Below, in pieces: positions 2,391 to 51,384 of a stretch of DNA of 64,000 nt. Position 1 is the first letter of the stretch, and the number at the start of each line of letters is the position of its first letter. The DNA is taken from positions 1,248,001 through 1,312,000 of the forward strand of contig OZ253564.1 in assembly GCA_965262915.1 (NCBI GenBank), in the 5' to 3' direction. The translations under genes and the position numbers were made by a program. The stretch comes from Candidatus Spongiisociaceae bacterium (GTDB taxonomy: Bacteria; Actinomycetota; Acidimicrobiia; Spongiisociales; Spongiisociaceae). The notes under the pieces were generated by a model. The model saw only the letters and a program-made list of their open reading frames with translations. It was not told where the DNA came from and ran no database searches.

Positions 2391-2635
2391 ATCTGAGTCC
2401 GACGGATAAGACCCCGCCCGGTGACCCGGATAGCCCCGAGGAGATAGAGCAAATCCAACGAAAGGACGAACCAGTCGTAGGAGATACGGGCATTCTCCAC
2501 GACTTCTCGCTGTTCACCTAGCTGGCGCCACAGCCCACTCACACTTAGGGACGAATCGCCAAGAACGCCGAGAACCTCACCGCCTACTGTGATAAGTGCC
2601 TTCGACGCCGGTACTCCCTTGCTCGGGAAGATCAT
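2387..2635 (-). CDS. ABC-3C middle component (MC6 / LmuC-like)
   Basis: 82 aa with MIFPSK...ALITVGGEVL and ISYDWFVLSLDLLY; coupled to both neighbours by 4-nt overlaps. Confidence 0.75.
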   Translation of the reverse strand: MIFPSKGVPASKALITVGGEVLGVLGDSSLSVSGLWRQLGEQREVVENARISYDWFVLSLDLLYLLGAIRVTGRGLIRRTQM

Positions 2636-3537
2636 GCCGTTACCTCGCCGGGGATCTCGAAAATGTGGCAGCGTTCGAAGAAATATGCCAAGACAGCGAG
2701 CGCACTGGCTAGAACGGTTGTGTCCGCACCACCCCCACAGATCCAGGCCAGCATGAGGTCAAAGACAACTGCTGCCGATCGTTCCTCATCGCGGAAACGG
2801 CAGTAGCGGTCGGACACAGCCCTGGCGATTGAGTCGGCGCGGGTAGGTAGAACGAATGCGTTTTCGAGGTAGCGCTCAACGAGAGGCGCGTTCCTGGTTC
2901 CCATCCTCAGGAAATCCACCTGCGCTGGCTTCAGCGCGTTGGCTTCGATCTTGCTCGCAGGCACCGGGAGTACCTCGTCCGATGGGTCGGGCACCATGTG
3001 TCCGAGTGCCTCGATCAGCGGGCCCAGGCTCGACGCATCTACCGCCAAGAAGTCCTGGTGAGTCAATGCTGGGCCCAGAATGGCCTGGCGATGGGCGTCA
3101 TGGAGGCGGGCGAACTCGTCGCGGAGCTGGGGGATTCCCCAGGCGGTACAGGTTACGTGCTCTGATCTCGAGTCGAGCTCGGCGATCGTCGTAGCAATCA
3201 TTGGGCCAAGGCCGTCGCGGTCATTGTGCACGAAGACCCAGGTGTCAAAGTAGTCCTCCCAGTAGTCAATAGCCCCCTCATAGTCCTCGACAAGCTTCGC
3301 TTTCAGCTTTTTTGCGGTGAGTGTCGAGGGCGCGTAGGACTGGAAAAGGATCCGACGCGCTGGCGACCAACCATCGTTCTTCCGGTCACCCTGGTTGCCC
3401 CATGGCCGCACTCGTTGGAAACCGACATCGCGTCGCTCCATGATCTGAGCGAACAGATCCTGAAACTCATTGCCTCGCCGCGCAAGGCAGGCGTTGTGGA
3501 AGACCATCTCCCATCCAGAACTCAACGGCGTCGACAT
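2632..3537 (-). CDS. ABC-3C effector: restriction-endonuclease-like domain plus C-terminal domain (LmuA-like)
   Basis: GNEFQDLF...VRPWGNQGDRKNDG nuclease-like motif and C-terminal AVLAYFFERCHIFE; start placed at ATG 3537 rather than the ORF-track start 3663. Confidence 0.75.
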   Translation of the reverse strand: MSTPLSSGWEMVFHNACLARRGNEFQDLFAQIMERRDVGFQRVRPWGNQGDRKNDGWSPARRILFQSYAPSTLTAKKLKAKLVEDYEGAIDYWEDYFDTWVFVHNDRDGLGPMIATTIAELDSRSEHVTCTAWGIPQLRDEFARLHDAHRQAILGPALTHQDFLAVDASSLGPLIEALGHMVPDPSDEVLPVPASKIEANALKPAQVDFLRMGTRNAPLVERYLENAFVLPTRADSIARAVSDRYCRFRDEERSAAVVFDLMLAWICGGGADTTVLASALAVLAYFFERCHIFEIPGEVTA

Positions 3538-3835
3538 GGCCACAGGGTACGCCGGCATTGGGACACCCGAATCGAGATCCAGAACGAAAAGGGGGAGAGG
3601 AGGCACGAAGGGAAACCCCCGAACGCCCAAGAACCAAGCGACCAAGCGACCAAGGAAACCCAAGGCTGCTTGCCAGGTGCCCCCAAGGGGCTATGCACAT
3701 TGCGGGATCTGTACACGGAGCCCTACACCTGGACGCCGCTCAACCCGAACGAAATCGCCACCCGCCTAGAGCTCCACACGGCTGACTCCCGTTACCCGTA
3801 AACCGACTCGTCCACGCCAGCGCAGCCCCTAGGCT

Positions 3836-4152: not shown

Positions 4153-5033
4153 ATGGGTTGTGTTGTCAGTTTCCTCCCACCCGCAGCGCCGGAGTCGGAT
4201 CATCCGGTGCACCATGTGCTGTCTGTGGCGGGGGCGGTGGAGGCTTTCTTCGCTAATCGTGACTTGGCGGCGGCCGCCCTGTGACTGAACTCGACCCGCG
4301 GCTTGTGGCGGTTGTCTTCGCGGATCGGTGGGCCCGCTGTGCGCCGGCGACGTGGAACCCCCGGCGGGTGGCGGTGCAGGCCTTCGCTACTTGGTGCGGT
4401 GATCGCTGGTCCATGGCTGCTGGTCCCCTCGCCGCGGTGCCGCCACGCCGGCGGGCGGTGGACAACACCTGGGCGATCTCGTATGCGGATCTCGAGGAGT
4501 TGTGGCGCCGCTGTGGGGTGCTGCTTAGGGAGACGCTGCTGTGGCGGTTGCTGTAGGAAACAGCAGCCCGCACATCGGTGGTGCTGGCCCTGGATGTGGG
4601 GGATCTGGACCGGGCGGGGCGGCGGGCCCGGATCCGTTCCAAGGGAGGCAGCGTCGACATGGTGGTGTGGGCGGCGCCCACCGCCCGCTTCTTGGGCCGC
4701 TATTTGGCCGACCGCACGGAGGGTCCCCTGTTCCTCACCCGGCACAGATCCCGCACCGCCCCGGCGTCCGGTGACCTGTATACGCGGACCGGCCGGGCCC
4801 GGCTGTCGTATCGGGCTGCAGCCGCGGAGTTCCGGCGCCATTTCGGCCGCTGGACCCTGCACCAGTTGCGCCAGTGGTCGTTGACGCATTTGGCCGAGGC
4901 GGGAGCGTCCGCGGTGATGTTGCAGGCCGAGAGCCGGTATCGGGACCTGCGCACCTTGTCGGTGTATGCCCGGCCCGGGGTCGAAGCTGTCGCACGGCTC
5001 ACCGCCACCCTGTTCGACGGTCCGGCCCGCTGA
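4153..5033 (+). pseudogene. Tyrosine recombinase (XerD-like), disrupted
   Basis: LWRLL*ETAAR (TAG at 4554-4556), SKGG, WTLHQLR and LSVYARP motifs; frame break near 4281. Confidence 0.85.
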
Positions 5034-7396: not shown

Positions 7397-10300
7397 ATGT
7401 CGGTTTCGATCTACAAAGTCGGCGTCGAGCACGTCGCCTACTACATGGGCTGCAAAGGCCACGGCGGGCACAGTGCGGGGGCGGCGGGCGGCGGGCGGCG
7501 GCCTGCGGGGGCTTCCCCGGTGGGCGGCGCGGAGGGTATCCCCGCAGGCGGGTCCCCGGCGGGCGGGTCAGCGGCGGTGGTGGGGGCCGGCGGCGGTGGT
7601 GGAGCCCCCGTTGGGGGCGTTCCGCTGGTCGGCTATTACACGGGCAGGGACGGGGAGTTGGCTGGCCGGTGGGCGGCGGGGGGGTCTATGAGTGTGGCGG
7701 TCGGTGCGCCGGTGACTCCCCAACAGCTCACAGCGTCGCTGTCCGCGGTGGATCCTGAGAGCGGGGAGCGGTTGGGTAGGCGTTACACGCCGGGAGGCAC
7801 CTACGTCGACCGGTTGGGGGTGACCCGCCGTCGGCGTAAGTTCAGCGCCTACGACATGGTGTACGCCCCGCCGAAGTCGGTCAGCGCGGCGTGGGCGCTG
7901 GCCGACCCGGCGACCCGCAAGCAGGTCGAGGCGGCGTGGGATCGTAGCGTCGGGGCGGTTGTCGGCTTTGTCCAGACCGAAGCGGTAGCGTCGAGGTCGG
8001 GAACCAACGGGGTCCGCCGGGAGGAAGTACCGGCGGGGGCGACCATCGCCCGTTTCGACCATTGGACTTCCCGAGCCGCCGACCCCCACGTCCACGCACA
8101 CCTCCTGGTCCACAACCGGGTGCAATGCTCCGATGGCAAGTGGCGCACCCTCGACGGGAGGCTGCTGTACCACAACGCTGCGGCGGCGTCGGCTGTGGGC
8201 GGAGCGGTGCTCCGTGCTGAGCTGTCCCGACGGCTCGGGTGGAGCTGGGACCGGGTAGGCGACCACTGGCACGCCGAGCTGGCGGGCAGCCCCCGCCGTC
8301 TCATCGCGCAGTGGTCCACCCGTCGGCGGCAGATCGACCGCGCAGCGCAGGCCAAAATCCGCCGCTTCGAGACCGACCAGCAGCGTGAACCCACCCCGGC
8401 GGAGCGGGCCGAGCTGTGGGCGAGGGCGCAGCGCAGCACCCGCCCTTCCAAACAAGACGACCCCGACCCCCACACCCGCTGGCATCGGGAAGCCGAAGCT
8501 CTCGGCGTCGACCCCGCGCAGGTGACTGCCTCCTATCAGACGGCCCGGCGGCGGGAACCCGACGGCTACGACCGGGCCGAGCTGGTGCTATCCCGCGGCG
8601 GCCAGGCTGCCCCCACCGTGGTGGCAGACGCTGTCGTCGCGCAGTTGGAACAGCTCGGGCAGGCGTCCCGGGGTCTGTCCCGGCCTGACATTCTCCGCAC
8701 GCTGTGGGCCACCCTCAACGCAGGGGCCGCCCTGGACGGCCAAGACATCGACGTGGAAGCCGAGCTGGGCCGCCTCGCCGACGAACTGTGGGAACGGGCG
8801 ACCAGCCGTTTGGTGGAACGCGACGGCCGCTGGTACTCGACCGGGCTGGCCTCAGCTGAGGTGGCCGCCGTGTCCTGGCTGGCTTCCGACGCCCAACCGG
8901 CCGCAGCCGCCGCCGCCGAAGTGGACACTGCCGGGCTCGGCGGCGACCAGGCCGCCGCGGTGGACACCATCCTCGCCGCGACCACTCGGGGTGTGGTGGT
9001 GCTCGGGCCGGCCGGGGCGGGCAAGACCGAGATGCTGAGCCGGGTGGCCGCCGCGGTCGGAGCGGACCGGGTACTTGCTGTGGCTCCCACCGCCGAAGCC
9101 GCCGCCAACCTCGGTGCTGCTCTGGGTGTGGTGGGTGAAACCGCCGCCCGGGCGGCCCTGTCCGACGACCAGGTGCCCCGAGGTGGGTGGGTCATCGTCG
9201 ACGAAGCCGGCCAGCTCGACACCCGCACCCTCGCCGCTCTAGCCGGGCGGGCCGCCGCCGCCGACGCTCGCATGATCCTGGTCGGGGACACCGCACAGCA
9301 AGGCTCGGTCGGGGCGGGCGGCGTGTTCGCGGCCCTCGCAGACCGGCCCGATCTGGTTCCCGGCGCTGTGCTATCCGAACTGTGGCGCTTCTGTGACCGG
9401 GACGAGGCCCGCGCCACCGTCGGGTTACGCTCCGGCAACGTCGACGCCCTGGCCTACCACACCGAACGGGGCCGGGTGCATGACAGCACCGAAGCCGAGC
9501 TGCCCGCCGTCGCGGCCGGCTGGTGGGCCGCCCGCCGTGATCAGGACACCATCATCACCGCCCCCACCCGCCGTCTCGTAGCCGACATCAACTCGGCGAT
9601 CGCCGCCCACCGGCACCGTGCCGGGGAGACCGGCCCCGCTGTCCGCGGCGAGGGTGACGCCACCATCCGGGTGGGTGACACCGTGACCACCCGACGCAAC
9701 AACCGCCGGATCGTCGCGTCCGACGGCGGGTGGATCCGCAACGGTGACCGCTGGGAAGTCACCGGCACCACCCCCGACGGCCAGATCACCGCACGACGCC
9801 TCGACCGCTCCGCCACCGTGACACTCCCTAACCGCTACACCACAGAACATCTCCAGCTGGGTTACGCCACCACCCAGACCCGCGTCCAATCCCTCACCGT
9901 CGACGCCGCGCTGTGCGCTGTCACCCACGCGTCCCGCCGCGACCAGCTCTACGTCGGGATGACCCGAGGCCGGGGGGAGAACCACCTGCTGGTAGTCACC
10001 GACCAGCCACAGCACGACGAGGACACACCCCCCGACCATCTGCCACCCGACCACATCATCCGCACCGTCATGAGCCGGGGCGGCTCCCATCCTCTCTCCG
10101 TCCCCGCAGGGTCGTTCACCGTCACCCCCCAAGTAGCCGCCGCCCACCTCCACAAAATATCGGACACCCCCCACCGCGCTCCCCTCCCCGACCTGACCAA
10201 CGTCGACACCCGCCGCATACTCACCCACGGGATAACAGCACAGACAGGCGGCGTCGAAGCCGAAGCCCTAATCGGCGGAGCGATCGGAGCGTGGCTCGAC

Positions 10301-12235
10301 GCCGAACTCGCCGCCGACGCCGAAGCCGACGAAGCCGCACGGGCGTGGGAAGACGCCCTGTTCGACCACATCGAAAACGGCGGCGAAATCGCAGACCTGA
10401 TCCCCGCCCACACCGACCCCCACCACTGGATCCCCGACGACGACGCCGGATACGACAGCCCCCCACCGCCCGACCTCGACGACGACGGCCCCGACACGGT
10501 GACGGCCACACCGGACCAGTACCCGCCCGCCCTGGACCCGGCGCAAGTCGAAGCGGTGATCGAGCGGGTGATCGACCACTGGGGAGCCGACCACTTCGAG
10601 CCTTACCTGACCCTCGCCGACGGCTGGGCGAACACACCACCGCCCGACCCCCGCAACGACCCCGGCCCCCTCGTCGCCCTCGCCGGCCTCTACCAACAAG
10701 CCCGCCACGCCGGAGACGACCCGCTGGCCAACCGGGCCGGAGCGCTCATGGCCGCAGTAGCCGACCCCACCCTGCGCGACACCCTCACCCCCCACACCAG
10801 CCACCGGCTCGCAGACGCCGACCGTCGCTGGGCCGCAGCCGTCCGCTCCCACCTCCGCGCTTGGCGAGCCGAAAGGTGGGCGCCGGTCCTCGACGCTCTC
10901 GACCAAGCCCGCAGCCAGCTCCGCGCCAGCATCCCCCAAAGCGGAGCCGTCACCGCCCCCGCAGCCGCCGGCCACGACCGCACGCACTGGCACCAGGCCG
11001 TAGCCGCCTGGATCGACGACGGAGCCGCCGCCCCACGGCTCGCCGCTGTCTGGCACACCACCAACCGGCGCACCGCCCAGACCCTCGCCGGCCTCCGCCC
11101 CCCACCCGTTTCCCGCGGAAACGGAGACACAGAAGCCCCCTGGCGGAACGTGCCCACCCCCGACGGGCCGGCACCCACTCGCCTACCCGCCGGGCTGCCC
11201 CCCATCCAACCGTCCTCCCAGCCCGCTCCCGCCCACCGCCCCGACGACGGCCACGACCACCTCCGCCGGGTGCTGGGGCGCAGCGCCGACTACTACCACC
11301 AACAGCTCCTCACCGTCCCCGCAGCCGAACCCGCCCGCCGCTACCTCACCGAGCGGGGAATCGAACCCGCCGATTGGGCCAAATGGCAGCTCGGCTGGGC
11401 CCCCGACCAATGGCGTGGACTGTGCAACCGGCTCGGAGACGACCAAGCAGCCGTCGACGCCGGTGTGGCCAACACCCGACGGGGCCGCACCTACGACGTC
11501 CTCCGAGGCCGGGTTGTCTTCCCCATCCGCGACACAGCCGGAGACGTGATCGCCCTCGCCGGGCGAACACTCCCAGGAACCGACGCCGGACAGCCCAAGT
11601 ACCTCAACACCCGCACCACCGCCCTCTACCACAAAACCGACACCCTCTACGGCATCCACGAAGCCGCCGACAGCATCCGCAGCACCGCAACAGCCGGAAT
11701 CGTCGAGGGATACACCGACGCCATCGCCGCCCACCGGGCCGGGCTCACCAACGTCGTCGCCACCGGCGGAACCGCCTTCACCCAAAGCCACCTGCAACGC
11801 ATCATCGACGCCGGCGCCCACCACCTGATCGCCGGGTTCGACGGCGACGCCCCCGGCCAAACCTCCCAACAGAAAGTCACCGACCAAGCCCACCAGGCTG
11901 GGATCCCCACCACGTCTGTGACGTTCCCCACCGGAACAGACCCAGCCAGCCTCGGACCCGACGCGCTGCTCGACCACTGGCAGGCAGGCCTCCCCCAACC
12001 GTGGACGCATATCCAACAGCACCTCGGCGGCGGAGACGTACACACCCGAGCACGAGGACACCGACACATCGCCGCCGCCTACCACAACACCGACCCCACA
12101 CTCGCCAACCTCGCCGCCCACCAAGCCCTCACCCACACCTACGGAGCCACCCCCCACACCCTCACCGCCTGGCACCAGCCCCTCACCACCACCCCACAGC
12201 GCAGCCGCCGCTCCGGCCCCGGCATCGGACTCTAG
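7397..12235 (+). CDS. mobF: MOBF (TrwC) relaxase - RecD-like helicase - DnaG Toprim primase fusion
   Basis: N-terminal YY pairs, APPKSVS, HUH motif DPHVHAH; GPAGAGKT, IVDEAGQ, LYVGMTRGR; primase motifs PKYLNT, VEGYTD, FDGDAPG. Confidence 0.92.
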   Translation: MSVSIYKVGVEHVAYYMGCKGHGGHSAGAAGGGRRPAGASPVGGAEGIPAGGSPAGGSAAVVGAGGGGGAPVGGVPLVGYYTGRDGELAGRWAAGGSMSVAVGAPVTPQQLTASLSAVDPESGERLGRRYTPGGTYVDRLGVTRRRRKFSAYDMVYAPPKSVSAAWALADPATRKQVEAAWDRSVGAVVGFVQTEAVASRSGTNGVRREEVPAGATIARFDHWTSRAADPHVHAHLLVHNRVQCSDGKWRTLDGRLLYHNAAAASAVGGAVLRAELSRRLGWSWDRVGDHWHAELAGSPRRLIAQWSTRRRQIDRAAQAKIRRFETDQQREPTPAERAELWARAQRSTRPSKQDDPDPHTRWHREAEALGVDPAQVTASYQTARRREPDGYDRAELVLSRGGQAAPTVVADAVVAQLEQLGQASRGLSRPDILRTLWATLNAGAALDGQDIDVEAELGRLADELWERATSRLVERDGRWYSTGLASAEVAAVSWLASDAQPAAAAAAEVDTAGLGGDQAAAVDTILAATTRGVVVLGPAGAGKTEMLSRVAAAVGADRVLAVAPTAEAAANLGAALGVVGETAARAALSDDQVPRGGWVIVDEAGQLDTRTLAALAGRAAAADARMILVGDTAQQGSVGAGGVFAALADRPDLVPGAVLSELWRFCDRDEARATVGLRSGNVDALAYHTERGRVHDSTEAELPAVAAGWWAARRDQDTIITAPTRRLVADINSAIAAHRHRAGETGPAVRGEGDATIRVGDTVTTRRNNRRIVASDGGWIRNGDRWEVTGTTPDGQITARRLDRSATVTLPNRYTTEHLQLGYATTQTRVQSLTVDAALCAVTHASRRDQLYVGMTRGRGENHLLVVTDQPQHDEDTPPDHLPPDHIIRTVMSRGGSHPLSVPAGSFTVTPQVAAAHLHKISDTPHRAPLPDLTNVDTRRILTHGITAQTGGVEAEALIGGAIGAWLDAELAADAEADEAARAWEDALFDHIENGGEIADLIPAHTDPHHWIPDDDAGYDSPPPPDLDDDGPDTVTATPDQYPPALDPAQVEAVIERVIDHWGADHFEPYLTLADGWANTPPPDPRNDPGPLVALAGLYQQARHAGDDPLANRAGALMAAVADPTLRDTLTPHTSHRLADADRRWAAAVRSHLRAWRAERWAPVLDALDQARSQLRASIPQSGAVTAPAAAGHDRTHWHQAVAAWIDDGAAAPRLAAVWHTTNRRTAQTLAGLRPPPVSRGNGDTEAPWRNVPTPDGPAPTRLPAGLPPIQPSSQPAPAHRPDDGHDHLRRVLGRSADYYHQQLLTVPAAEPARRYLTERGIEPADWAKWQLGWAPDQWRGLCNRLGDDQAAVDAGVANTRRGRTYDVLRGRVVFPIRDTAGDVIALAGRTLPGTDAGQPKYLNTRTTALYHKTDTLYGIHEAADSIRSTATAGIVEGYTDAIAAHRAGLTNVVATGGTAFTQSHLQRIIDAGAHHLIAGFDGDAPGQTSQQKVTDQAHQAGIPTTSVTFPTGTDPASLGPDALLDHWQAGLPQPWTHIQQHLGGGDVHTRARGHRHIAAAYHNTDPTLANLAAHQALTHTYGATPHTLTAWHQPLTTTPQRSRRSGPGIGL

Positions 12236-12294
12236 ATGTTTCGAGCCGCCAGTTTCGGGCGGAAACACCCCACAAACGGGAGGGGGCTCAGCTC

Positions 12295-12465
12295 GTGCAG
12301 CCCTTCTCGTCGCCAGCGGGTCCGGACGCCGCCGAGTTGGAGGAGTGGATCGTCAAATCGCACCGGGCAGGGTGGGGATACGGCCGGATCGCAGCGGCTA
12401 CCGGCCAGCACCGCACCCAAGTAGCCCGGATCGTCGCCCGGAACCGGCCACCCGAAGGCTCCTAA
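12295..12465 (+). CDS. Small helix-turn-helix protein (56 aa)
   Basis: GGAGGG RBS, GTG start; AGWGYGRIAAATGQHRTQVARIV fits an HTH pattern. Confidence 0.5.
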   Translation: MQPFSSPAGPDAAELEEWIVKSHRAGWGYGRIAAATGQHRTQVARIVARNRPPEGS

Positions 12466-12662
12466 TCCTCGACCCGACGCCGCATCTCAACCAGTACCTG
12501 AGGGTTTTCGGTGTGCACCGCTGCTGACCTGGGGGTTTGTAGGTTGCATGTTGGCGGTCCGCTGGACCCGGACACCGGGGTCACTCGGCTGGACCGTCCG
12601 GCCGTGGCGGATCGTCGGTCATGACTGGTTCCGTCGGGCGTCCCGCAGGGTTGAGTGGATCG

Positions 12663-12883
12663 GTGACACGGGCCGTCTCCGGCAGGTCACCACATGCGGC
12701 CGCTTGTCCGGAAACACGGGATCTCGTCTACTAGCCCGGTCTCCGCTGACCATCGTCGACCAGTATTATCCGCCGCATATTCGACCGTGTTATGCACGCC
12801 ACCGGCCGCCGACCGCCGGAAACCCCCATCTACCTGGGGAAACGCCGCGGGGGCAGCTTTACATAATGTTTATTATCGGACAA
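12663..12883 (-). repeat. Left arm of a diverged ~220-bp inverted repeat
   Basis: Aligns to the reverse complement of 14059-14291; 12725-12760 matches 14192-14227 at 34/36. Confidence 0.85.
12856..12883 (-). other. dif-like XerC/XerD site (left)
   Basis: Minus strand reads TTGTCCGATAA-TAAACA-TTATGTAAAGC, the 11-6-11 dif architecture with ATAA/TTAT inner ends. Confidence 0.75.
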
Positions 12884-13145
12884 CGGCCTACCCGGCATCA
12901 GCCTCCGGAGAAGGCGTCGGGGGGAGGGACCTGGGACGGGGACCTATGGCACCCCTCCTGTCCGGGGAAGACCCGACTTTGTTAACTTGGGTAGCGCCCC
13001 GCGTTGAGGACAGCTTCCTGACACAGACCCCAGCGAGGTCGGGACGGCTCCGGAGCTAGGGTTCAACCCTTAAAGGGGCCTGAAGCGACTCCGAGCAGGC
13101 TGGCACCCCTAAAGGAGTTAGGTTCTTGAAGGATGGGAGATCAAG

Positions 13146-13814
13146 TTGGACACTTTAGGCACTCTTCTCGTCCTACTGGGGTTGTTATCGTTCCTTCTCG
13201 GCCTTGTCAACGTCATCTACCCGATCAAGGCGCTGCGGATCCCGCGGTCGCGTGCTCTGTTGATTGTGGCCGCTTCCTTTGGTGTTCTCATCGTTGGTAG
13301 CATCGTCGGTAGCGACACCGGGAGCAATCAGTCCCCAACTAGTGCTCAACCTCGTTCCGAGGCAACGACTACTACGACGACGCGCATCGCCACAACAACT
13401 ACAACGACTACTAAGCCTCCCCCTAAGCGAGCGGGCATCGGCGACCCGGTACGGGATGGCAAGTTTGAGTTTGTTGTTATCGATGTAGAACAGCCGGGCA
13501 AGATCCTCGGGTCTGGAGGGCTAGAGGATGAGGCACTCGGTACGTGGCTTATTGCTCGGATAAAGGTAACGAATGTCAGCGACGAAGCACAGTCCTTCTT
13601 CGCAGGTAATCAAAAACTCACATTAGGCGCAGCTACATATGATGCTGCCTCTTTTACCTGGAGCGGCACCGCCTTAGAGGACCTAAATCCGGGACTGAGC
13701 TTTGAGGCGATAGTGCCCTTCGATGTTCCCGAAAGCTTCCCGCGAGATGGAACTGGAGCGGTACTGACACTACATGATTCAGCGTTGTCGGGCGGTGTGG
13801 AGGTCTGGCTCTAA
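13146..13814 (+). CDS. Membrane-anchored DUF4352 protein, Mpr-like
   Basis: Two N-terminal hydrophobic helices, Thr-rich linker, then GIGDPVRDGKFEFVV, LNPG and FDVP motifs. Confidence 0.75.
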   Translation: MDTLGTLLVLLGLLSFLLGLVNVIYPIKALRIPRSRALLIVAASFGVLIVGSIVGSDTGSNQSPTSAQPRSEATTTTTTRIATTTTTTTKPPPKRAGIGDPVRDGKFEFVVIDVEQPGKILGSGGLEDEALGTWLIARIKVTNVSDEAQSFFAGNQKLTLGAATYDAASFTWSGTALEDLNPGLSFEAIVPFDVPESFPRDGTGAVLTLHDSALSGGVEVWL

Positions 13815-14058
13815 ACACGCCTGATTGGGGCAAACGCTTCCTCACCGCCGCCGGGCAGCCACACGCCGAATCCGGGACATCACCCACGCTGGGCGAGGAT
13901 CTGGACGGGGAACTGTGGCCGGCTGTCATAGGTCGCCCGGCCTGCCTAACACTCTCTTGAGCCCCTCCAGCGGAGGGGTAGTCCGTTGATGCAGCGCAGC
14001 GTGCAGCCCGGTAGCCGGCTACCAAGACCAACGGGGCGGACACCGGCGGGGGAACGTG

Positions 14059-14086
14059 ATGTCCGATAAAAGACATCATGACAAGC
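14059..14086 (+). other. dif-like XerC/XerD site (right, more degenerate)
   Basis: ATGTCCGATAA-AAGACA-TCATGACAAGC; occupies the same position in the repeat as the left site. Confidence 0.6.
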
Positions 14087-14291
14087 TGGGCCCGCAGCGT
14101 CTCCCCAGGTAGAAGCCGGTTTCCGGAAACCAGCAGCCGGGCCGTGCATAAACCCGCCCGGCCACGTTTGGATATACACCACACAGCGCTAGTCAACGAT
14201 GGTCAGCGGAGACCGGGCCAGTAGACGAACTCCCGGCGTTTCCGGGCATTCGGCCGCACCTGGCGACCTGCCGGAGTCGGTCCGGCGTCAC
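14059..14291 (+). repeat. Right arm of the ~220-bp inverted repeat
   Basis: Reverse-complement similarity to 12663-12883. Confidence 0.85.
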
Positions 14292-14339
14292 GTCGCCGCA
14301 TGATGTCACGGACGGCACATTTGAGCCTTGTGATCGGGT

Positions 14340-15296
14340 TCATTCTCTGAATTGGAACCACGGACCGGGCAGGGGCGGCTTGTCGTCTTGTGGTACGTCG
14401 CCGAACATGACGGCGATGCCGGACAGGTACAGGTCGCGTCGGTCGAGGGTGGTTCCGTTGGCGAGCCTCACATTGCCGTCGTCGTCAACGAGGGTTTGTT
14501 CCATGAATGCCATGCGGTCCGGTATCGGCGTACCGTTGGCAGGATGCCTGAATGGAGTCTTCGCCCAGACTCCGTTGTCGAAGGCAACACAGATGCCGTG
14601 GGCGCTGGTGCCGTCGTCGTCCGCTCCGATGAACACGATGCGCAGCGAGACGATTTCGAGGGTTTCCCGTTCCTCCAGTGCGCTGCGCATCTGGGGGTAC
14701 ACGAACCACCTGGCTGCAGCTCCGGATATGAACCCGCCCATCAGGTTCATGAGGTTCATGTGGTTGAGGAAGTCAAGCACGTGACCCATCGTGAGAATCA
14801 TCGGATCGCCTGGCTCGAACCATCTGAGGACAGTGCACTTGCCGGTCTCTTGGGCGCTCGCGATGCCAGCGTGGTGCACGAGATCGTTTCTGATGTGCCT
14901 CAGATCGCCCCAGGGGTTGGCTCGTGGGCGAATCGCGTCATTGGCAGCAATGCTCGCTTTCATGACGTTGCGTAGATCGCTTTCCCAGACGATGTTGTAC
15001 GTTTCCTCGATCCAGGCTTTGAATGCGAGTTGCTCGGCTTCGCCCTCGCGCCCCAAGACCTCGTTGAGGTCGAAGCCCGGACCGTTGTCCACCAGCGGGA
15101 TATCCACATAGGAGAGTTCCGGCGGACAGACTGCCCCGTGGCGGCTGTTCGGCGGAACTCTGTTGTATGTGGGCAGAATCCGCCCTCGGACCAGTTCCAT
15201 GCCCTGGAGCAGATACATGAGCGATGCAGTCGCATGCAGGGTCTTGTAGTTCAGCAGATTCCCGATTTGGCTTCGGTCGGGCTGGTCATCGGTCAT
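14340..15296 (-). CDS. Hypothetical protein with HEPN-like Rx4H motif
   Basis: Long ORF with protein-like composition; LRHIRNDLVH. Start uncertain (15296 or 15317). Confidence 0.6.
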   Translation of the reverse strand: MTDDQPDRSQIGNLLNYKTLHATASLMYLLQGMELVRGRILPTYNRVPPNSRHGAVCPPELSYVDIPLVDNGPGFDLNEVLGREGEAEQLAFKAWIEETYNIVWESDLRNVMKASIAANDAIRPRANPWGDLRHIRNDLVHHAGIASAQETGKCTVLRWFEPGDPMILTMGHVLDFLNHMNLMNLMGGFISGAAARWFVYPQMRSALEERETLEIVSLRIVFIGADDDGTSAHGICVAFDNGVWAKTPFRHPANGTPIPDRMAFMEQTLVDDDGNVRLANGTTLDRRDLYLSGIAVMFGDVPQDDKPPLPGPWFQFRE

Positions 15297-15517
15297 GTGG
15301 GGGAGGCTGGGAAGCACCGCTTGCGAGTATCAACTTGAGCAAACCGCCGATCGCTCAAGCATCCGCACCGTCTACCGTTCCGATTTCGATGCCGGCGCCG
15401 AGACTCGACAGCCTAGACACAATGACAGTTCAGGTGACTGCCGGGGCGTGCGGTTGTGGGCTTTGAGGTCCGACCGAGTGTTGGGGTGTGGGTGCCCGAA
15501 AATGGTGTCGTGGCTGG

Positions 15518-15722
15518 TCAGGCGGCATGTTTGTATTCGTTGATGAGGCCATCGCAGCGGGTCGTTCGGACGAGTCGAAGGGGTAGCGGGTGGTCAGTCG
15601 TGTTGTTGTCGGGGGTGGTGTGTCGGGGTGGTCGCTGGGTTAGCGATTCGCTGGGGCCGGTGGAAGTTGTAGTGCGCGATGTAGTCGATCGCGAGCCGCT
15701 GGAGCTGGCGTTGGTACCAGAT
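15518..15722 (-). pseudogene. Integrase-core (DDE) transposase C-terminal remnant
   Basis: RTTRCDGLINEYKHAA* resembles the C-terminus of actinobacterial rve-type transposases. Confidence 0.55.
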
Positions 15723-16694
15723 CCCCGACCCCCAAAGGCCCCCAGCGGAAGGGTACTCCGCTGCCCACAACGGTTAACGCCCTGGTCGGGGTACGACTTA
15801 GAGCCGGGCCAGGTGCTCAAGTCCCACATGCCGTCCCACTCCCCCCCGGAATACCCGGCGCAGGCCACGGGGCTAGATCGTCTCGACCTTCAGCCATTTA
15901 CCCGTCTTGCATAGCATGGTCCCTGCCTCAACGAAGGGACCACCACGAATGGGCGAAGAGTCAACCACCGCCACCGAGCAGCGGGTGTGGATCATCCACC
16001 CAGTGATGCTGGCCCAGCCGTTCCTAATTTTCGGCATGTTGGGCCTCGCCCTCACCACATAAGACGAGGCACCGCCACGGCCGGCTAAATGAGGTGATGG
16101 GATGTTTTCGGGGCTGGCTTACTACTGGTATCCGCAAGCATGAGGCAGGCACGGTGTGCGCGACACCCCCCGCTGCGACCGTTCGATACTGGACCCGGTC
16201 CGTAACTTGTAGGTTTCAGCGCAGCCCGCTCTGAACGTCCGGACGGCATGTCACCGCCTGCGCCTTCCCGGATGATCCGCCAAGACACAGCCAGGTCACC
16301 CGACCAGCGTCTGCTGCCAGGGCTCCGAACTGGGAGGGTCGACGGGCGGGCCGTGCGATGGTTCGTAACGGCCCCTCCCCCTCAACGAATCGAGAGGGTC
16401 GAGGCCCTGGCCCGTTTCCGTCGGGAACGGCCCCGAATCGGCCCTGAGATTGTTAACCAACGTACCTACAGGGCTAGGAGCCGTGTTACGAACTGGGAGA
16501 ACCCCGCTATGGCTCAGACAGCCTGGCCGCTCTGGTTTGCATCTTCTTTTCTTGGGCCTGGGCGGTGGTGTTGACATTGCGGTTCTGTTTCCCCCCGAAA
16601 GGTGGGGGAAGCGGCATTTGTCGCCGTTCCCCATCGTCACCTCCTCTCACAGCGGAGGGGTAGCCTGACAGGGCGGTCTGTTCCCTGAACGTTC

Positions 16695-16898: not shown

Positions 16899-17090
16899 GT
16901 CCGGGGGTCAAGGCTTCGGTGCTGCTGAACCCGGTCTCTTTCAGCCGACAAGCGCCGCGGTTGCGAGCCGGTCCCCAACCCAGCCGCCGAGGTCGATCTG
17001 CGCCGTCAGTTCCGAGACCGCAGAGCGATGCTGCCCGCGTTCACCGACCCTGCACAAGCTAAGTCGAGGATAACTCCGGAAGGACATACC

Positions 17091-19037
17091 ATGGACAAGT
17101 TGAAGATGCACTCACCCTATCTGACCGAGTGGAGCATAGACAAGATCGCCGAGTTGTTCCCTACGGTCATCACCGAGACGCTCGACGACACCGGCCACCC
17201 GATCCGGGCCATCGACTTTGACCTGCTTCGTCAGGAACTGTGCAACCACATCGTAGAGGGGCCACAGGAACGCTATCAGCTTGACTGGCCCGGCAAGCGC
17301 AAGGCTCTTCTCGCAGCGAACGCCCCGATCGCGAAGACGCTACGTCCGGTCCGCGAGAAATCCGTCGACTTCGATATCACGCAGAACCTATTCATCGAGG
17401 GCGACAATCTCGACGCCCTCAAGCTCTTGCAAGAGTCGTATCTCAGCAAGGTCAAGCTCATCTACATCGATCCGCCGTACAATACGGGCAAGGACCTCAT
17501 ATACGACGATAGATTTGCCGGATCAACCCACGAGTATCTGGCAAAGTCTCGGCAAGTTGACGATGCTGGGAGGCGTCTGGTAGCCAACACGGATTCCAAC
17601 GGACGCTTCCACTCAGACTGGCTGAGCATGATCTATCCACGACTGAAGCTCGCACGGAATCTCCTATCCGAGGACGGAGTGCTCCTCGTGTCGATCAACG
17701 ATGTTGAAGCAGGCAATCTTAAGAAGCTTGCCGCGGAAGTGTTTGGAGAAGCGAACTTTATCGCTCAGTTCGTGTGGCTCAACGATGGCAACGTCGACCA
17801 GCAAAGCAAAGTAAAAGGCGTACACGAATATATACTCGCCTTTGCTCGGACCATCGAGAACTTCCAGCGCCCAATCGTGATCGATCCGAACATCAACGAA
17901 GCCAGCAAACTGTACCGGAAGACGATCGAAAACTCAATCACAAAGAATGGACCGGCCAATCCTCCATCAGTAGTGACGTTGCCCGTCGGGTTCCCGGCCG
18001 GATTCTCTAACGGCCGCGTCCGGCCACGAGTTGACAAGTTCCCACATATACTTGATGAGATCTTGGTCAGAGACGGGTTGCTCGTACAGCCAGCGAGATT
18101 GCGAAGTGGCTGGAGTTCACGACAACTACTTGATCAGTTCATTAATTGCGGATGTACGCCGATTCAGGATACCGCGGGCAGAGAGACATGGTTCGAACTT
18201 CGTGATAGCGGCGCGATCTATGGACTGAAGAAGCGGGCCGACGATCAGGGTCATGTGCTGTCAGTATTGCGTAATATGGGAACGACGAAGCAGAACAGCT
18301 CGATGCTCCGAGCGTGGGGCCTGAAGTTCTCATACCCAAAGCCGGTATTCCTAATCGAATACCTAATCAGGGTCTTCACCCGGCCAAGAGACGGTGAGAT
18401 CGTAATGGACTACTTCTCCGGCTCTGCAACGACAGCTCATGCGGTAATGGCCGCGAACGCTCACGATGGCGGAGACCGGAGGCACATACAGGTTCAGTTT
18501 CCTGAACTCATAGAGAGAAGCGAAGACCACCGCGATGAAACCATCGCGGACCTTGCTAGGCGCCGGATGGTTGCAGCTGGAGAGTCAATTCAGGCAGAGT
18601 GTACCCGAAACACTGGTGAGTCCACACTGGATACAGGATTCCGATTCCTGAGGATTGACACGACCAACATGACGGACGTGCTGCGCACGCCTGACTCGAT
18701 CGACCAGAGCGAGTTGGCCCTTTATATGGAGAGCGTGAAGCGGGGCCGAACCGGTGAGGACTTGCTGTTCCAAGTACTCCTCGACTGGGGCCTGGAGCTC
18801 AGCATGTCCATCGCGGTCGAGCAGATAGACACGCACGAGGTGTTCGTCGTCGAGGATAGGGTACTCGTCGCCTGCTTCGACAACGAGGTGAGTCCAGCCT
18901 TGGTGCGCGAGATCGCAGAGCGGGAACCACAGCGTGCAGTGTTCCGTGACTCTGGATTCGTGTCGGACGCCGACCGTATCAACGCCAAGCAGGTATTCGC
19001 CGAGGTGTCCCCCTCTACCGACGTCAAGGTGATCTGA
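17091..19037 (+). CDS. mod: Type III restriction-modification methyltransferase
   Basis: NLFIEGDNL, IYIDPPYNTG, FSYPKP, DYFSGSATT; RBS GGAAGGA before ATG 17091. Confidence 0.95.
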   Translation: MDKLKMHSPYLTEWSIDKIAELFPTVITETLDDTGHPIRAIDFDLLRQELCNHIVEGPQERYQLDWPGKRKALLAANAPIAKTLRPVREKSVDFDITQNLFIEGDNLDALKLLQESYLSKVKLIYIDPPYNTGKDLIYDDRFAGSTHEYLAKSRQVDDAGRRLVANTDSNGRFHSDWLSMIYPRLKLARNLLSEDGVLLVSINDVEAGNLKKLAAEVFGEANFIAQFVWLNDGNVDQQSKVKGVHEYILAFARTIENFQRPIVIDPNINEASKLYRKTIENSITKNGPANPPSVVTLPVGFPAGFSNGRVRPRVDKFPHILDEILVRDGLLVQPARLRSGWSSRQLLDQFINCGCTPIQDTAGRETWFELRDSGAIYGLKKRADDQGHVLSVLRNMGTTKQNSSMLRAWGLKFSYPKPVFLIEYLIRVFTRPRDGEIVMDYFSGSATTAHAVMAANAHDGGDRRHIQVQFPELIERSEDHRDETIADLARRRMVAAGESIQAECTRNTGESTLDTGFRFLRIDTTNMTDVLRTPDSIDQSELALYMESVKRGRTGEDLLFQVLLDWGLELSMSIAVEQIDTHEVFVVEDRVLVACFDNEVSPALVREIAEREPQRAVFRDSGFVSDADRINAKQVFAEVSPSTDVKVI

Positions 19038-19041
19038 GGCA

Positions 19042-22000
19042 GTGGAACTCCAGTTCAAGATCCAGCAGTACCAGACCGACGCCGTCGAAGCGGTGGTCGA
19101 GTGTTTCGCCGGGCAGCCCAAGCATGATGGCATTTCGTACCGTGTCGATCCTGGCCACCAACCGAACGCAGATCAGCAGAAATTCGACGTGTCAGCGACT
19201 CACGATTCGGGTTTGCGTAACGCCGAGATTGCGCTGAGCACGGTGCAGCTGCTGGAGAACATCCACTCTGTGCAACACAGCCACAACCTCCCCCGATCCT
19301 GCAAGCTGGCCAACAGCAAGGCGGCACCGGACGCACCGAACTTAGACATCGAGATGGAGACAGGCACGGGCAAGACCTACGTCTACATCAAGACGATCAT
19401 GGAACTGCACCAGCGTTACGGGTGGAGCAAGTTTATCGTGGTCGTACCAAGCGTGGCGATCCGCGAGGGTGTGAAGAAGTCGTTCGATATCACCGCCGAC
19501 CACTTCCAGCAGTACTACAGCACCAAACCACGGTCGTTTATCTACAACTCGTCGCGACTTCACGAACTGGAGCGGTTCAGTTCGCACGGCGGGGTGCAGG
19601 TGATGATCATCAACATCCAGGCGTTCAACGCGACCGGCAAGGCCAACCGTCGAATCTACGAAGAACTCGACGACTTCCAGTCACGGCGCCCGATCGATGT
19701 AATCAGAGCCAATCGTCCGGTCCTGATCATCGATGAGCCTCAGAAGATCGGCGCAGCCAAGTCACTCAAGGCACTCTCGCGCTTCGAAGCACTCATAGTT
19801 CTGCGCTATTCGGCGACCCACAAGGTTGACCATGACAAGGTTCACCGGCTCGACGCTCTCGATGCGTACAACCAAAAGCTCGTGAAGAAGATAGCGGTGC
19901 GCGGCATCACCGTCAAAGGCCTAGCTGGAACCACCGCTTACCTGTACCTGAACGCCATCGAGATCTCCAAGCGACACAAACCACGGGCGCGTCTCGAGTT
20001 GGAGGTGCAGACGAAGGCGGGACCGATCAAGCGGCAGGTCAAGCGACTCGACGTCGGGGCGAACCTGCACGACGTCTCGGGCGGCATCGAGGCGTACAGG
20101 GGATTGTTCATCACCGAGATCGACGCCAACCGTGACGTGATTGAGCTGAGCAACGGTGACGTCGTGACCGTCGGGCAACTTACGGATCGCGACGTCACCG
20201 AGGAAACCAAGCGTCGCATCCAGATCCGGGAGGTGATACGCGCCCACCTTGACAAGGAGCGCGAACTGTTCGCGCAGGGCATCAAGGTGCTGTCTCTGTT
20301 CTTCATTGATGAGGTGGCCAAGTACCGCGACTACGACCGGGAAGACACGCTTGGCGATTACGCCCGCACTTTCGAGGAAGAGTACGCCGCCGCTGTAGAC
20401 GAGGTATTGGACGAGCCCACGCTCGACGAGACGACGAGGGTGTATCGGGAGTACCTGCGGCGCGACAAGGTGCGGACCGTGCACCAGGGTTACTTCTCGA
20501 TCGACAGGAGATCGAAGCGGCTGGTCAACCCGACGGTCGTCAAGAGGGGTGAGGAAAAGGGCCACTCAAAGGACGTCGACGCCTACGACCTGATTCTGAA
20601 GGACAAGGAGCGCCTGCTGTCGCTCGCCGAACCAGTGCGGTTCATCTTCTCCCACTCGGCGCTTCGCGAAGGATGGGACAACCCCAACGTGTTCGCTATA
20701 GGGATGCTCAAGAAGAGCGACAACATCGTGTCGCGCCGCCAGGAGGTGGGCCGCGGCCTACGGCTCGCCGTCAACCAGCACGGCGAGCGAATGGACAGCC
20801 CCATCACCGTCCACGACATCAACGAACTGACCGTGGTGACTGACGAGTCCTACACCGACTTCGTCGCGGGACTGCAGAAGGAAATCGACGAGTCGCTCTC
20901 CGCACGCCCCCGAAAGGCCACGCCGGAGTTCTTCGCCGACAAGGTGCTCCGAGTGCCAGACGGATCGGGTGAGCAGGTTGTCATCACGCTTGACCAGGCC
21001 AGGCATCTCCAGCACTGGCTCACAATGAACGGGTTCATCGACTACGAGCAGCATCTCACCGACAGGTGGCTAGACCGTGCGAACATCGACATGCCGGAGC
21101 TGCCTGACGGACTGGATCAGTTCTACTCCCAAGTCGCAGAACTGATAGATTCGCTCTACGTCGGCTTTCCACAGCCCACCGACGGACGCAGACCGAAGCG
21201 CATCCCACTCAACGAAGCAAATTTCGCGAAGAGGGAGTTTCAGGAGCTTTGGGGTCGTATCAACCACAAGGCCGTATACCAGGTCGAGTTCGATTCCACG
21301 GAGCTAATCGACAAGTGCATCAGTGCTGTCGACGCCCAATTGCACGTAACCGCGACGCAGTACGTCGTGAAGTCCGGAGAGCAGCGGGATGTGCTGGAGG
21401 CTTACGACCTAGCCGAGGGAGCGGGCTTCGACATCACCAGAACGGTCACACACATCGAACCCGCCACGGCCGCCTCGCAGGTCAAATACGACCTTCTCGG
21501 CAGGATCGCCGAGAAGACGCAACTCACCCGCCGCACAGTCAGCGCGGTCCTTCGTGGTATCCGGCGGGACACGTTCGCGAAATATCGGCAGAACCCCGAG
21601 CAGTTCATCACCGAAGCGGCACGCCTCATCAACGAACAAAAGGCCACCGTCATCGTGGAGCACTTGACCTACGACACCCTTACCGAGCGGCACACTACGG
21701 CGATATTCACCGAGAACCAGACCAGACAGGACTTCGCCAAGGCCGGGCCCAAGCTCACAAAACACATCTACGACTACGTGGTCACCGACTCGAAGGTCGA
21801 GCGCGACTTCGTAACCGAGATGGACACTAGCAACGAGGTCGTCGTGTACGCGAAGCTCCCGCGTGGATTCTTCATCCCAACCCCGGTCGGCGACTACCAC
21901 CCTGACTGGGCCATCACCTTCCAGAAGGGTACGGTCAAGCACGTCTACTTCGTCGCCGAAACCAAAGGTTCTCTCTCCTCGATGCAACTCAGGGGAGCCG

Positions 22001-22125
22001 AGTTGGCAAAGATCGAATGTGCCCGCAAGTTCTTCAAATCGCTGAACACGAAGAACAACTATGCCGTGAAGTACGACATCGTGACCAACTACTCAAGGCT
22101 CATGAGCCTTGTTGGACAGCCCTAA
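19042..22125 (+). CDS. res: Type III restriction endonuclease subunit
   Basis: EMETGTGKT, IIDEPQ, LREGWDNPN, QEVGRGLR and C-terminal YHPDW...AETK; 4 nt after mod. Confidence 0.95.
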   Translation: MELQFKIQQYQTDAVEAVVECFAGQPKHDGISYRVDPGHQPNADQQKFDVSATHDSGLRNAEIALSTVQLLENIHSVQHSHNLPRSCKLANSKAAPDAPNLDIEMETGTGKTYVYIKTIMELHQRYGWSKFIVVVPSVAIREGVKKSFDITADHFQQYYSTKPRSFIYNSSRLHELERFSSHGGVQVMIINIQAFNATGKANRRIYEELDDFQSRRPIDVIRANRPVLIIDEPQKIGAAKSLKALSRFEALIVLRYSATHKVDHDKVHRLDALDAYNQKLVKKIAVRGITVKGLAGTTAYLYLNAIEISKRHKPRARLELEVQTKAGPIKRQVKRLDVGANLHDVSGGIEAYRGLFITEIDANRDVIELSNGDVVTVGQLTDRDVTEETKRRIQIREVIRAHLDKERELFAQGIKVLSLFFIDEVAKYRDYDREDTLGDYARTFEEEYAAAVDEVLDEPTLDETTRVYREYLRRDKVRTVHQGYFSIDRRSKRLVNPTVVKRGEEKGHSKDVDAYDLILKDKERLLSLAEPVRFIFSHSALREGWDNPNVFAIGMLKKSDNIVSRRQEVGRGLRLAVNQHGERMDSPITVHDINELTVVTDESYTDFVAGLQKEIDESLSARPRKATPEFFADKVLRVPDGSGEQVVITLDQARHLQHWLTMNGFIDYEQHLTDRWLDRANIDMPELPDGLDQFYSQVAELIDSLYVGFPQPTDGRRPKRIPLNEANFAKREFQELWGRINHKAVYQVEFDSTELIDKCISAVDAQLHVTATQYVVKSGEQRDVLEAYDLAEGAGFDITRTVTHIEPATAASQVKYDLLGRIAEKTQLTRRTVSAVLRGIRRDTFAKYRQNPEQFITEAARLINEQKATVIVEHLTYDTLTERHTTAIFTENQTRQDFAKAGPKLTKHIYDYVVTDSKVERDFVTEMDTSNEVVVYAKLPRGFFIPTPVGDYHPDWAITFQKGTVKHVYFVAETKGSLSSMQLRGAELAKIECARKFFKSLNTKNNYAVKYDIVTNYSRLMSLVGQP

Positions 22126-22156
22126 TCTGCTTGAGGCTGCGCGATTCCGTGGGGTT

Positions 22157-22548
22157 GGGGTTACCGTAGAAAATGGACAAAGGACAACGGTTTCGTTGGG
22201 CGACTGATGCGGCAGGTGGTGGTTTGGGGGTGGGGTTGTGATTGCTGTCTGGCGTTGGTGGGGTGACTAGAAGGAAGGTGGGGGAGTGTTAGGGGTTCTG
22301 AGGGGTCGGAGTTGTCCTTGGTGTTGGGGTGGTGAAGTCGTTTTGCCGTAGAAGTTGATGTGTTGGTGGATGGCGGGTGATAGGCGGGCGAGTCGGCGGC
22401 AGGGAACGACGTGCAGAAGTTCAGCGCCTAGGCGATGTTCATGACCCGACACAGGGAGCTCCGGTCGCTGAGACCACACCTATGGCCGAGTCCATGCACA
22501 GATACGCACCCAAACCGTTGTGTTTTGTCCATTTGCTACGGTCACCCC
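22157..22548 (-). mobile_element. Internally deleted Tn3-family mini-element (392 bp)
   Basis: Imperfect 38-bp inverted repeats starting GGGG (22157-22194 and 22511-22548); contains TnpA C-terminus LARLSPAIHQHINFYG...LRPLR. Confidence 0.8.
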
Positions 22549-22594
22549 ATCTACCTCTCCCAGCCAGGACTCGCCAAACGTGCTCGGCGCCCGG

Positions 22595-38830: not shown

Positions 38831-40219
38831 CCACGCTGGCTCCGGTGTCAGCTGCGATCGCCAGCGAGTGGATTCTCCTCTCCGGAGTGATTGAGGGAAG
38901 TCTTCGAATCCGTAGTGGGGGTGAACTGGTCAGGTCTCTATTGTCACGGGGATTCCGATCTGTGTAGCGATTGGCGTGTAGAGGTCTACCTCGACTTCTT
39001 CGGTGTAGAGCGATACGAGGAGTGCATAACGCACCGACAGGTTGTTCCGGTCAGCTCGGTTGTTGTTCTTCCACCATCCACTGACTGGGTACACACCGAG
39101 AACCCCGCAGTCGCCGAGGTCGGCGGCTGTCCCTTCCCACAGGTCCGCATGTAGCGACCCGACATGGCGACTCTGGGGTCCGACAAGCCATTCTGGTTCC
39201 TGTCCTGGACTGTTGTGGGTTCCACCCTCCTCTACTTCGGCGAGACGATTCAAACGGCGTTGGAACTCTACGGTCGTCTCGCCGGGTCGGCGGATGTCGA
39301 ATCTCAGACTGTGGGATGGGTATACGTAGCGGCTTCTCCATCCACGATTCGAAGCATTGGGCTCGATGAAGTAGCTGAGAGTCACCCGCAGCCGCACGGG
39401 TGTTTCGCCAAGATCGAGGAGCTGGTCCCGGGGCCACGGGAGGTCGTGGGTATGCATTTCCCGAAGGCGCGCCTGGCTCCTGTTGTCTTGATCGAAGGGC
39501 TGGATGTGCGATTGGGCGATCAGTGTTACGGCATTGGAAGCACTCCGCAGCACCCGCTCATCGGTGGGGACGCCGAACCCGTAGCGCCTGAGTAGCTGTC
39601 GGCGCTTAGTCTTGGTCGGCGCTTGGTCGATTGCGGCCGCCATAGGCGGCGTCCACTCAGCAGCATGTACGAGCAGCCCTCGGATCGTCTCAGGCCACAG
39701 GTTGGGATAGTTTGCAGCTACCCGCCCGGCGAGGCGTGCTGCTTGAGCCGCCGCAGCGCTGGTCGCGTTTGCGGTCGTGAGCGGACGTCCCAGGGGTTCC
39801 AGGTAGGAGGTTGTCGCGATCGAGACCACATCGTGTTGGTCGAAGTGGGTGGCGTCCGGCGATACTAGGAGGTTGCCGCCTTCCATCACGATGTCCGGCT
39901 TGAGCGGCCAGATCTTAGAGTAATTGACGGATGTCCTGCTGAAGGGTGACAGTTCGCCGCGAGGTGCCAACGGCGTGTATCCAGCGAAGTCGGGATGTTG
40001 CGGCGTGACAGCGAGTTCGGTATAGGCTCCGACGGTCAAAGCGTTCCACGATTGGCCAGGATCTTCGATCGCCAACGTGTCACACACTTCCAGGAAGTTT
40101 GTTTTATGGCCGTCGCGGACGTTCCCTCCTGAGACGATAAGTAGTCGACTGGATTGGGAATCGGGGTCGGTGAGCAACTCGATGCCCGCTTCGGTTGCGG
40201 AAACGTCTGTGCCGAAACT

Positions 40220-43868: not shown

Positions 43869-44088
43869 GAACTCCGTTCCCTCCCGGTGTCACCCCCGGC
43901 CCCGCCCCAGTCATCGCCAAGTCACTTCGTTCATGCCGGCGAGGACGTGGGTTGCACTCGGTTCTCACCATCCTACGCCGCCGACTCTCAGGTACGGCGC
44001 ATGTGCAGCTTCTTAGGTGTCTCCCACATCGGCTACTAAGCAAACGGCAGTTGAGACGATCGTGGAAGAACACACTCATAATGGAATG

Positions 44089-44325: not shown

Positions 44326-44354
44326 AGAGTAGCGCCCTCGAGGAGGTGGTGGTC

Positions 44355-45587: not shown

Positions 45588-45589
45588 CA
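45584..45589 (+). promoter_or_regulatory. -35 box of the IS110 circle-junction promoter
   Basis: TTGACA; on circularisation it lies 16 nt from CATAAT (44077-44082). Confidence 0.7.
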
Positions 45590-50170: not shown

Positions 50171-50213
50171 GGTTGGTGGAGGCTGCGTGGTGCGATCATG
50201 GGTCTCCCTTTCG

Positions 50214-51376: not shown

Positions 51377-51384
51377 CCGCCACC

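Follow-up and report, generated by a model that had tools for sequence, protein, structure and literature searches.

A family of island-borne dif-like sites with a conserved XerD-side arm in an acidimicrobial chromosome

Dif modules, which lie between pdif sites, are described from the Rep_3/OrfX plasmids of Acinetobacter and lately from chromosomes (PMC13141974, PMC12907356); a 2026 paper terms the system unique to Acinetobacter (PMC13141974), and dif modules have also been reported across genera (PMC13644095). In the Acinetobacter model, crossover takes place between spacers that are identical or carry one difference beside XerC, and single C or D modules are said to be unable to excise, movement occurring in pairs or through cointegrates (PMC13141974). 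The pdif sites themselves are described as lacking accessory sequences (PMC7399989). The accessory DNA of cer and psi, about 200 bp long, is reported to adjoin the XerC site (10.1101/2024.04.05.588136) and to bind PepA together with ArgR or ArcA (10.1101/2024.04.05.588136, 10.64898/2026.02.23.706985). Xer recombination far from the terminus is stated to need an activator other than FtsK, and IMEXs (CTX, and TLC with XafT) to integrate at chromosomal dif (PMC9226527). Among the openly available papers listed by literature searches, none dealt with such sites in Actinomycetota or with accessory DNA on the XerD side.

We analysed a window of 64,000 nucleotides (G000:C1:1248001-1312000) from a genome, here G000, that consists of one 5.06-Mb contig with 64.4% G+C. 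Inside a genomic island, 430 bp behind a TrwC relaxase-primase gene and ahead of a type III restriction system, two 28-bp dif-like cores face each other around a single open reading frame with their XerC-like halves inward, and the coordinates, sequences and orientation given for both 28-mers in a preliminary description of this DNA were all correct (Table 1). The enclosed gene matches Pfam DUF4352 (E 3e-11), has a G+C content of 54.9% against the 64.4% of the genome, and is predicted to encode a membrane-anchored surface protein. The 325-aa ORF beyond the right site had no match in Pfam, NCBIfam or PADLOC, and its first Atlas matches score 0.89, which is a lead only. Elsewhere in the window we observed a type III restriction-modification pair (17028-22125), defence-like genes matching PADLOC PDC-M68A and PDC-M68B (651-3663), a CBASS-like locus with an oligonucleotide cyclase, a phospholipase effector, capP and an HTH gene (49769-53506), and a tyrosine recombinase with an internal TAG (4368-5033) that has relatives in several other islands. 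The window further carries a MITE-like element with 43-bp inverted repeats 308 bp apart (22156-22549; 95% copy at 1466475-1466863) and two insertion sequences (40210-41652 and 44066-45607) with dozens of copies genome-wide.

Table 1. Features in and around the DUF4352 module (window coordinates)
Feature	Position	Strand	Remarks
Left dif-like core TTGTCCGATAA-TAAACA-TTATGTAAAGC	12856..12883	-	28 bp; XerC-like half 12883-12873, spacer 12872-12867, XerD-like half 12866-12856
Right dif-like core ATGTCCGATAA-AAGACA-TCATGACAAGC	14059..14086	+	28 bp
Left arm, site-specific part	12749..12855	-	12-bp linker, box 1 GTTTCCCCAGGTAGA (12843-12829), GGTTT, box 2 GTGCATAA (12797-12790); short form, 11 bp missing
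Right arm, site-specific part	14087..14203	+	box 1 (14099-14113), box 2 (14144-14151); long form, extra 11 bp
Left arm, distal block GTCAGCGGAGACC...GTGACCTGCCGGAG	12660..12760	-	no zinc-finger ORF behind it, unlike other copies
Right arm, distal block	14192..14290	+	0 differences from duplicate copy over 14087-14290
Cargo gene	13146..13814	+	222 aa: hydrophobic N-terminus, Thr-rich linker, DUF4352 domain
21-bp core CAGCGGA-GGGGTAG-TCCGTTG, second site family	13968..13988	+	inside cassette, 70 bp inside right site
TrwC relaxase-helicase-primase gene of island	7397..12235	+	88% identical to sister-island TrwC at 507024-513087
325-aa ORF, no known family, XerD side of right site	14340..15317	-	moved along with module
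190-bp block closing variable region in both sister islands	15726..15916		second 21-bp core at 15743-15763
Near-identical segment	12871..15492		19 differences/2622 bp vs G000:C1:1425343-1427962 (inverted); left end = left spacer, right end = likely IS-end remnant

A search with the core pattern gave matches in 20 of 24 same-family genomes, 17 of them single-copy, and in 1 of 16 other-family genomes; the reversed pattern, used as a control, gave none in 41 genomes. The commonest form, ATGTCCCATAA-TGCACG-TTATGTAAAG, lies in G000 at 2308072-2308099, and 8 genomes share one 24-mer with G000:2308074-2308097, so that this site, being the commonest form and shared with 8 relatives, is taken as the chromosomal dif. 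The cumulative GC skew of G000 peaks near 2.85 Mb, about 550 kb from dif at 2.31 Mb, and was therefore not used to pick dif. XerC- and XerD-like genes lie at 2013452 and 2402664; they score below TIGR/curated cut-offs, far above other recombinases. Which half is XerC-like and which XerD-like we take from likeness to E. coli dif. Compared with the host dif in XerC-like half, spacer and XerD-like half, the left core is identical at 9/11, 3/6 and 10/11 positions and the right core at 10/11, 2/6 and 7/11, so the resemblance holds (9-10/11 and 7-10/11 per arm). Between the two cores, the XerC-like halves are 10/11 alike and the spacers differ at 2 of 6 bases. Three host-type cores lie away from dif (G000:C1:1446668-1446695, 2850963-2850990 and 4016099-4016126), and the XerC-side flank of the core at 4016099 matches the dif locus over 216 bp (93%).

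A weight matrix applied to the 5.06-Mb genome scored 15 sites at 34-50 bits and left the range from 11 to 34 bits empty; because the matrix was built from these same sites, their own scores are inflated and the weight is carried by the gap and by the controls, in which the reversed and the complemented genome each gave 1 match above 11 bits and none above 15. This 15-site core family is not a product of chance. Twelve of the cores carry box 1 (GTTTCCCCAGGTA, one substituted) 12-13 bp beyond the XerD-like half, the site at 514425 ending after it, and three, dif included, have no arm; five further arm fragments occur in G000 without a core, and at 2850989 a host-type core is joined to a box-1 arm. 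The spacer NAGACA is found in 6 of the 12 arm-bearing sites, all of which differ from the host TGCACG at 2-4 bases. They form two inverted C pairs (the cassette and its duplicate), one inverted D pair (1480824/1483878, enclosing a DUF4062 gene together with an ORF of 129 aa) and one direct pair (514425/515813), the remaining four standing alone, and since clusters never hold more than two sites there is no alternating array. The 12 box-bearing cores are in island DNA and have varied genes beside them, which confirms that cargo differs between copies. XerC-side and XerD-side flanks are weakly correlated rather than independent (rho 0.23 over 136 non-independent pairs).

Arm-bearing sites were present in 5 of 8 genomes of the genus (4 of 7 besides G000), and a search of 33 further relatives, 400 genomes drawn from the phylum, a plasmid collection and viral contigs found none; the arm was not found in 72,556 plasmids, which gave one 25-bp core-only match. 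To call the system actinobacterial, as had been proposed, is therefore too wide, as it is found in one genus of Acidimicrobiia only. In the DNA fetched from relatives, 7 of 9 sites are single and the other two form a direct pair with one armless member; 2 of the 5 pairs are direct repeats. The core-plus-box pattern matched 6 loci in a species-genome collection and 5 in metagenomes, the latter not being independent because they are 99.99-100% copies of three of the former. A looser pattern gave matches in 2 genomes out of 400 further Actinomycetota and in 4 viral contigs; no arm was seen where one of the genome matches and the viral ones were inspected, and the remaining genome match is AT-rich and without core. 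Two weak DNA matches in other genera (G010 and G019) are not arm-bearing sites either. Side observations from these searches comprise an arm-bearing site with a 7-bp spacer in a relative (G002, L005), an armless dif-like core (L142:8001-8025) beside an arsenic cluster on the 110-kb actinobacterial Cellulomonas plasmid NZ_CP081863.1, and another (L007:1502-1529) on a second contig of G019.

The two arms of the cassette align with 74.3% identity over 226 columns (12669-12882 against 14060-14284, E about 1e-35), and their best block, 35/37 (12724-12760 against 14192-14228), contains the 34/36 block noted previously, the repeated unit being non-coding and on the XerD-like side. The supposed conserved arm of about 190 bp is indeed a repeated arm and also a composite, made of about 110 bp that are site-specific and a distal block that is found away from dif-like cores as well and also follows 21-bp cores of a second site family. 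Over 17 copies taken from 4 genomes, likeness is 91% in the XerC-like half, 65% in the spacer and 78% in the XerD-like half; in the arm, box 1 (98%), GGTTT (93%) and box 2 (84%) are set among linkers of 55% (linker 1) and 47-51% (linker 2). The start of box 1 falls on position 46 in all but one of the 17, and exactly 11 bp are missing after box 2 in 4 of them, including the left arm of the cassette. Boxes held at a fixed distance between variable linkers, with an 11-bp indel, would fit a protein-binding array forming a DNA-protein complex. AT phasing or periodicity of the arm was not significant (p 0.25 and 0.06). A structured RNA was rejected, with 0 Rfam matches in the window and compensatory change in 0 of 9 predicted pairs in 12 copies. 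Neither is the arm a MITE or IS end, as its outer ends vary between copies and the sharp end is the inner XerC edge; a KOPS-like role was discarded because inspection by eye in bins of 250 kb showed no polarity of the boxes along the replichores. The likeness of the family ends at the outer XerC edge, where, in four runs, a depth of 216-493 drops to 47-78 over 12874-12894, with loose ends at 12882-12883.

A sister island at tRNA-Ile has TrwC, the right site with the same spacer and the 190-bp closing block in common with this island, and the cargo of the two differs on both sides of the common right site. Positions 14042-14200 match 515797-515953 of the sister island at 88.7%, with the same spacer and the same orientation to TrwC, and from this correspondence the right site is likely the backbone site of the island. 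The same islands are punctuated by about 50 cores of the second site family, CAGCGGA-N7-TCCG(C/T)TG, for which the pattern has 51 matches genome-wide and 3 in a reversed control. These 21-bp cores resemble tRNA anticodon arms, and 10 of the 12 arm-bearing sites lie within 4 kb of a 21-bp island core where 0.95 would be expected.

A duplicate allows a comparison: window positions 12717-15492 recur inverted at 1428116-1425343, 165 kb away, with 35 differences, 16 of which fall in the first 154 bp (to 12870; 10%) and 19 in the next 2622 bp (0.7%). The last dense differences, at 12868 and 12870, lie inside the left spacer, and none follows for 207 bp. A change-point analysis placed the best break after 12870 (2dLL 48); of the likelihood, 72% lies in the core at 12866-12883 and 1% in the arm, and the 95% bound is 12905. 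Homologous crossover is disfavoured, because it would be expected to break anywhere in the arm and to leave the near part of the arm identical, and the near part diverges. At the other end, the right core and right arm show no difference between the copies, and the unit has therefore moved together with the next gene, not as a gene alone. The preliminary description had presented a self-contained single-gene cassette, a picture that is not supported: the duplication continues past the right site and into the gene that follows, and 4 of the 12 arm-bearing sites have no partner.

Contigs from the four runs agree with this structure. Loose ends pile up at 15487-15526 in all four; in run X1, a 2614-bp contig covers exactly 12871-15485 with the alleles of the duplicate, and a perfect contig over 12814-12900 spans the junction of the window copy too; pieces over 12853-12932 in runs X8 and X13 carry 3 differences, which the junction of the duplicate would produce. 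X1 is possibly close to the source sample, so these contigs guard against assembly error more than they add independent events. No more than one breakpoint falls at a core, and that at a single side of the module: the same module stands in two contexts with its boundary at the left site and not at the right. No such boundary is seen between L067 and L072, two copies of another genome: their likeness continues across the core and is lost some 50 bp inside the arm rather than at the spacer. In none of 28 other family genomes did the interior of the cassette match along its length. A DUF169 gene that G000 shares at 98% with L067/L071/L072 stops 28 bp before the core, and in G000 no core accompanies it, so that it is uninformative. 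A joint from 13988 to 12231, present in three of the four runs (side 39-41 bases), was not read as a circle, as the motif at 12248-12275 is itself repeated.

We favour, with a probability of roughly 0.55, the reading that these sites are an island-borne dif-like family with a conserved XerD-side arm, and that the DUF4352 gene is a C-type module that changes neighbours by crossover at the cores. Speaking against it are the single one-sided breakpoint, the L067/L072 pair that diverges within the arm, the unpaired sites and missing arrays, the direct pairs, the correlated flanks, the lack of full-length matches to the cassette interior in the family, the many 21-bp cores, which could do the shuffling instead, the non-significant AT phasing and the 7/11 match of the right XerD-like half. 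Recombination at the island cores is likely carried out by host XerC and XerD, which would bind the 11-bp halves; a core would cross over with a compatible core in another island, giving the module new neighbours. If crossover requires a matching spacer, island sites would exchange among themselves and the chromosomal dif would be spared. Inverted sites could not excise the gene alone, and it would travel with its neighbour or via a cointegrate of sister islands, as in the Acinetobacter model. The arm may bind a host or island protein and so license recombination far from the terminus without FtsK; an activator besides FtsK being necessary there for Xer recombination, the arm is the candidate that suggests itself.

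A possible, though rather doubtful, alternative is that core and arm are the multimer-resolution site of an excised mobilizable island, a mirror image of cer and psi, in which the arm acts as a topological filter allowing only the resolution of direct repeats; the pairs would then be by-products of reshuffling at 21-bp integrase cores or of homologous recombination, and the gene would not be a dedicated exchange unit. The length of the arm and its fixed spacing to the core fit accessory DNA (about 200 bp for cer and psi; 10.1101/2024.04.05.588136), and pdif sites are reported to lack accessory sequences (PMC7399989); the sister TrwC island contains an orthologue of the right site, sites in relatives mostly stand alone, and within the cassette there is a 21-bp core of the family that could do the shuffling. 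However, the switch in identity coincides with the spacer instead of lying in the 154 bp over which the arms are homologous, three close pairs among the 10 non-duplicate sites modestly exceed random placement (P 0.003-0.033, by assumed island space), and the known accessory DNA lies on the XerC side. An invertible switch that flips the surface-protein gene in phase variation appears very improbable. Inverted cores do surround one predicted surface protein, with XerC-like halves nearly identical, but the spacers differ at two bases, which makes inversion unlikely, inversions in Acinetobacter having needed identity or one difference beside XerC (PMC13141974). Moreover, the gene has the same orientation relative to the right arm in both genomic copies, a promoter scan of the arms was not significant (1 found, 0.6 expected), and the assembled contigs of the four runs over 11800-16200 hold no strand-change joint, although contigs cannot show absence. 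The original suggestion of Xer-driven cassette exchange or inversion is thus partly supported, with one past exchange breaking at a core and inversion unsupported.

Quite unlikely, too, is a relic, the unit being the end of an element once integrated by Xer whose arm persists upstream of a small zinc-finger gene and was passively carried about with the islands, the cores being out of use. A 55-aa Cys/His ORF (for example G000:C1:541117-541284, L024:9117-9284, with 11 more island copies) stands behind an arm or distal block in 9 of its 12 island copies, and the five coreless arm fragments would also suit this account. By contrast, neither window arm leads to such an ORF, decayed cores are absent from the interval between 11 and 34 bits, and the XerC-like half has stayed far more alike than the adjacent linkers of around 50%. 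Relatives of the ORF occur in 151 of 301 genomes of the class, with 1-3 matches in most genomes of the order and an expansion in G000 behind the arms, and 29 of their loci gave no convincing dif-like site (3 AT-rich one-mismatch matches). A more distant copy lies at 4894081. Among the island copies, 9 of 21 variable columns are third positions, which is no clear sign of selection; the ORF has no NCBIfam family, a word-index homologue search gave 1 match, and its Atlas matches are unnamed Actinomycetota clusters.

An extension of our favoured reading, that of C-type modules exchanged at the cores, would be an undescribed class of Xer site whose helically phased XerD-side arm, with either a host protein or the small zinc-finger protein as its binder, turns XerCD towards exchange that is independent of FtsK and so provides the islands of Actinomycetota with a module shuffling of their own and a spacer code that spares dif; we regard this as speculative and, on balance, unlikely. 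The recombination of pdif sites at a distance from the terminus, with neither FtsK nor accessory DNA, calls for an explanation, and a site family with XerD-side boxes in a Gram-positive phylum would offer a direct handle on whether accessory DNA there activates Xer. Its importance is limited by the narrow range, one genus, and by a cargo that is not clinical.

Collectively, these observations suggest that the sites are probably module sites of a pdif-like kind whose arm on the XerD side is unusual. They share with the dif modules of Acinetobacter the 28-bp 11-6-11 architecture resembling host dif, a one-gene C module whose XerC halves point inward, with a D module (1480824/1483878) and direct pairs of the CD type at other places, accessory cargo that varies, and a module carried along with its neighbour. 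They differ in their Actinomycetota host, in lying in chromosomal TrwC islands rather than Rep_3 plasmids, in having at most two sites per cluster with many single and no alternating C/D arrays, in the conserved arm of more than 100 bp on the XerD side, and in being interleaved with a second site family; because of the missing alternating arrays, the other carrier and the accessory arm, they are not members of the pdif module system and are only partly like it. With cer of ColE1 and psi of pSC101 they have in common a dif-like core, one degenerate half and a long conserved non-coding flank at a fixed distance, whereas here the accessory arm adjoins the XerD-like half, the site occurs 12 times in one chromosome, and inverted pairs exist. 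Bregu and colleagues reportedly observed in 2002 that XerD cuts first when the psi accessory DNA is moved to the XerD side. Like IMEXs, the islands appear to be mobile DNA using host Xer outside dimer resolution, for which an FtsK-independent route would be needed; unlike IMEXs, the cassette (1260856-1262086) lies about 1.05 Mb from dif, has a different spacer, and resides in islands with integrases of their own.
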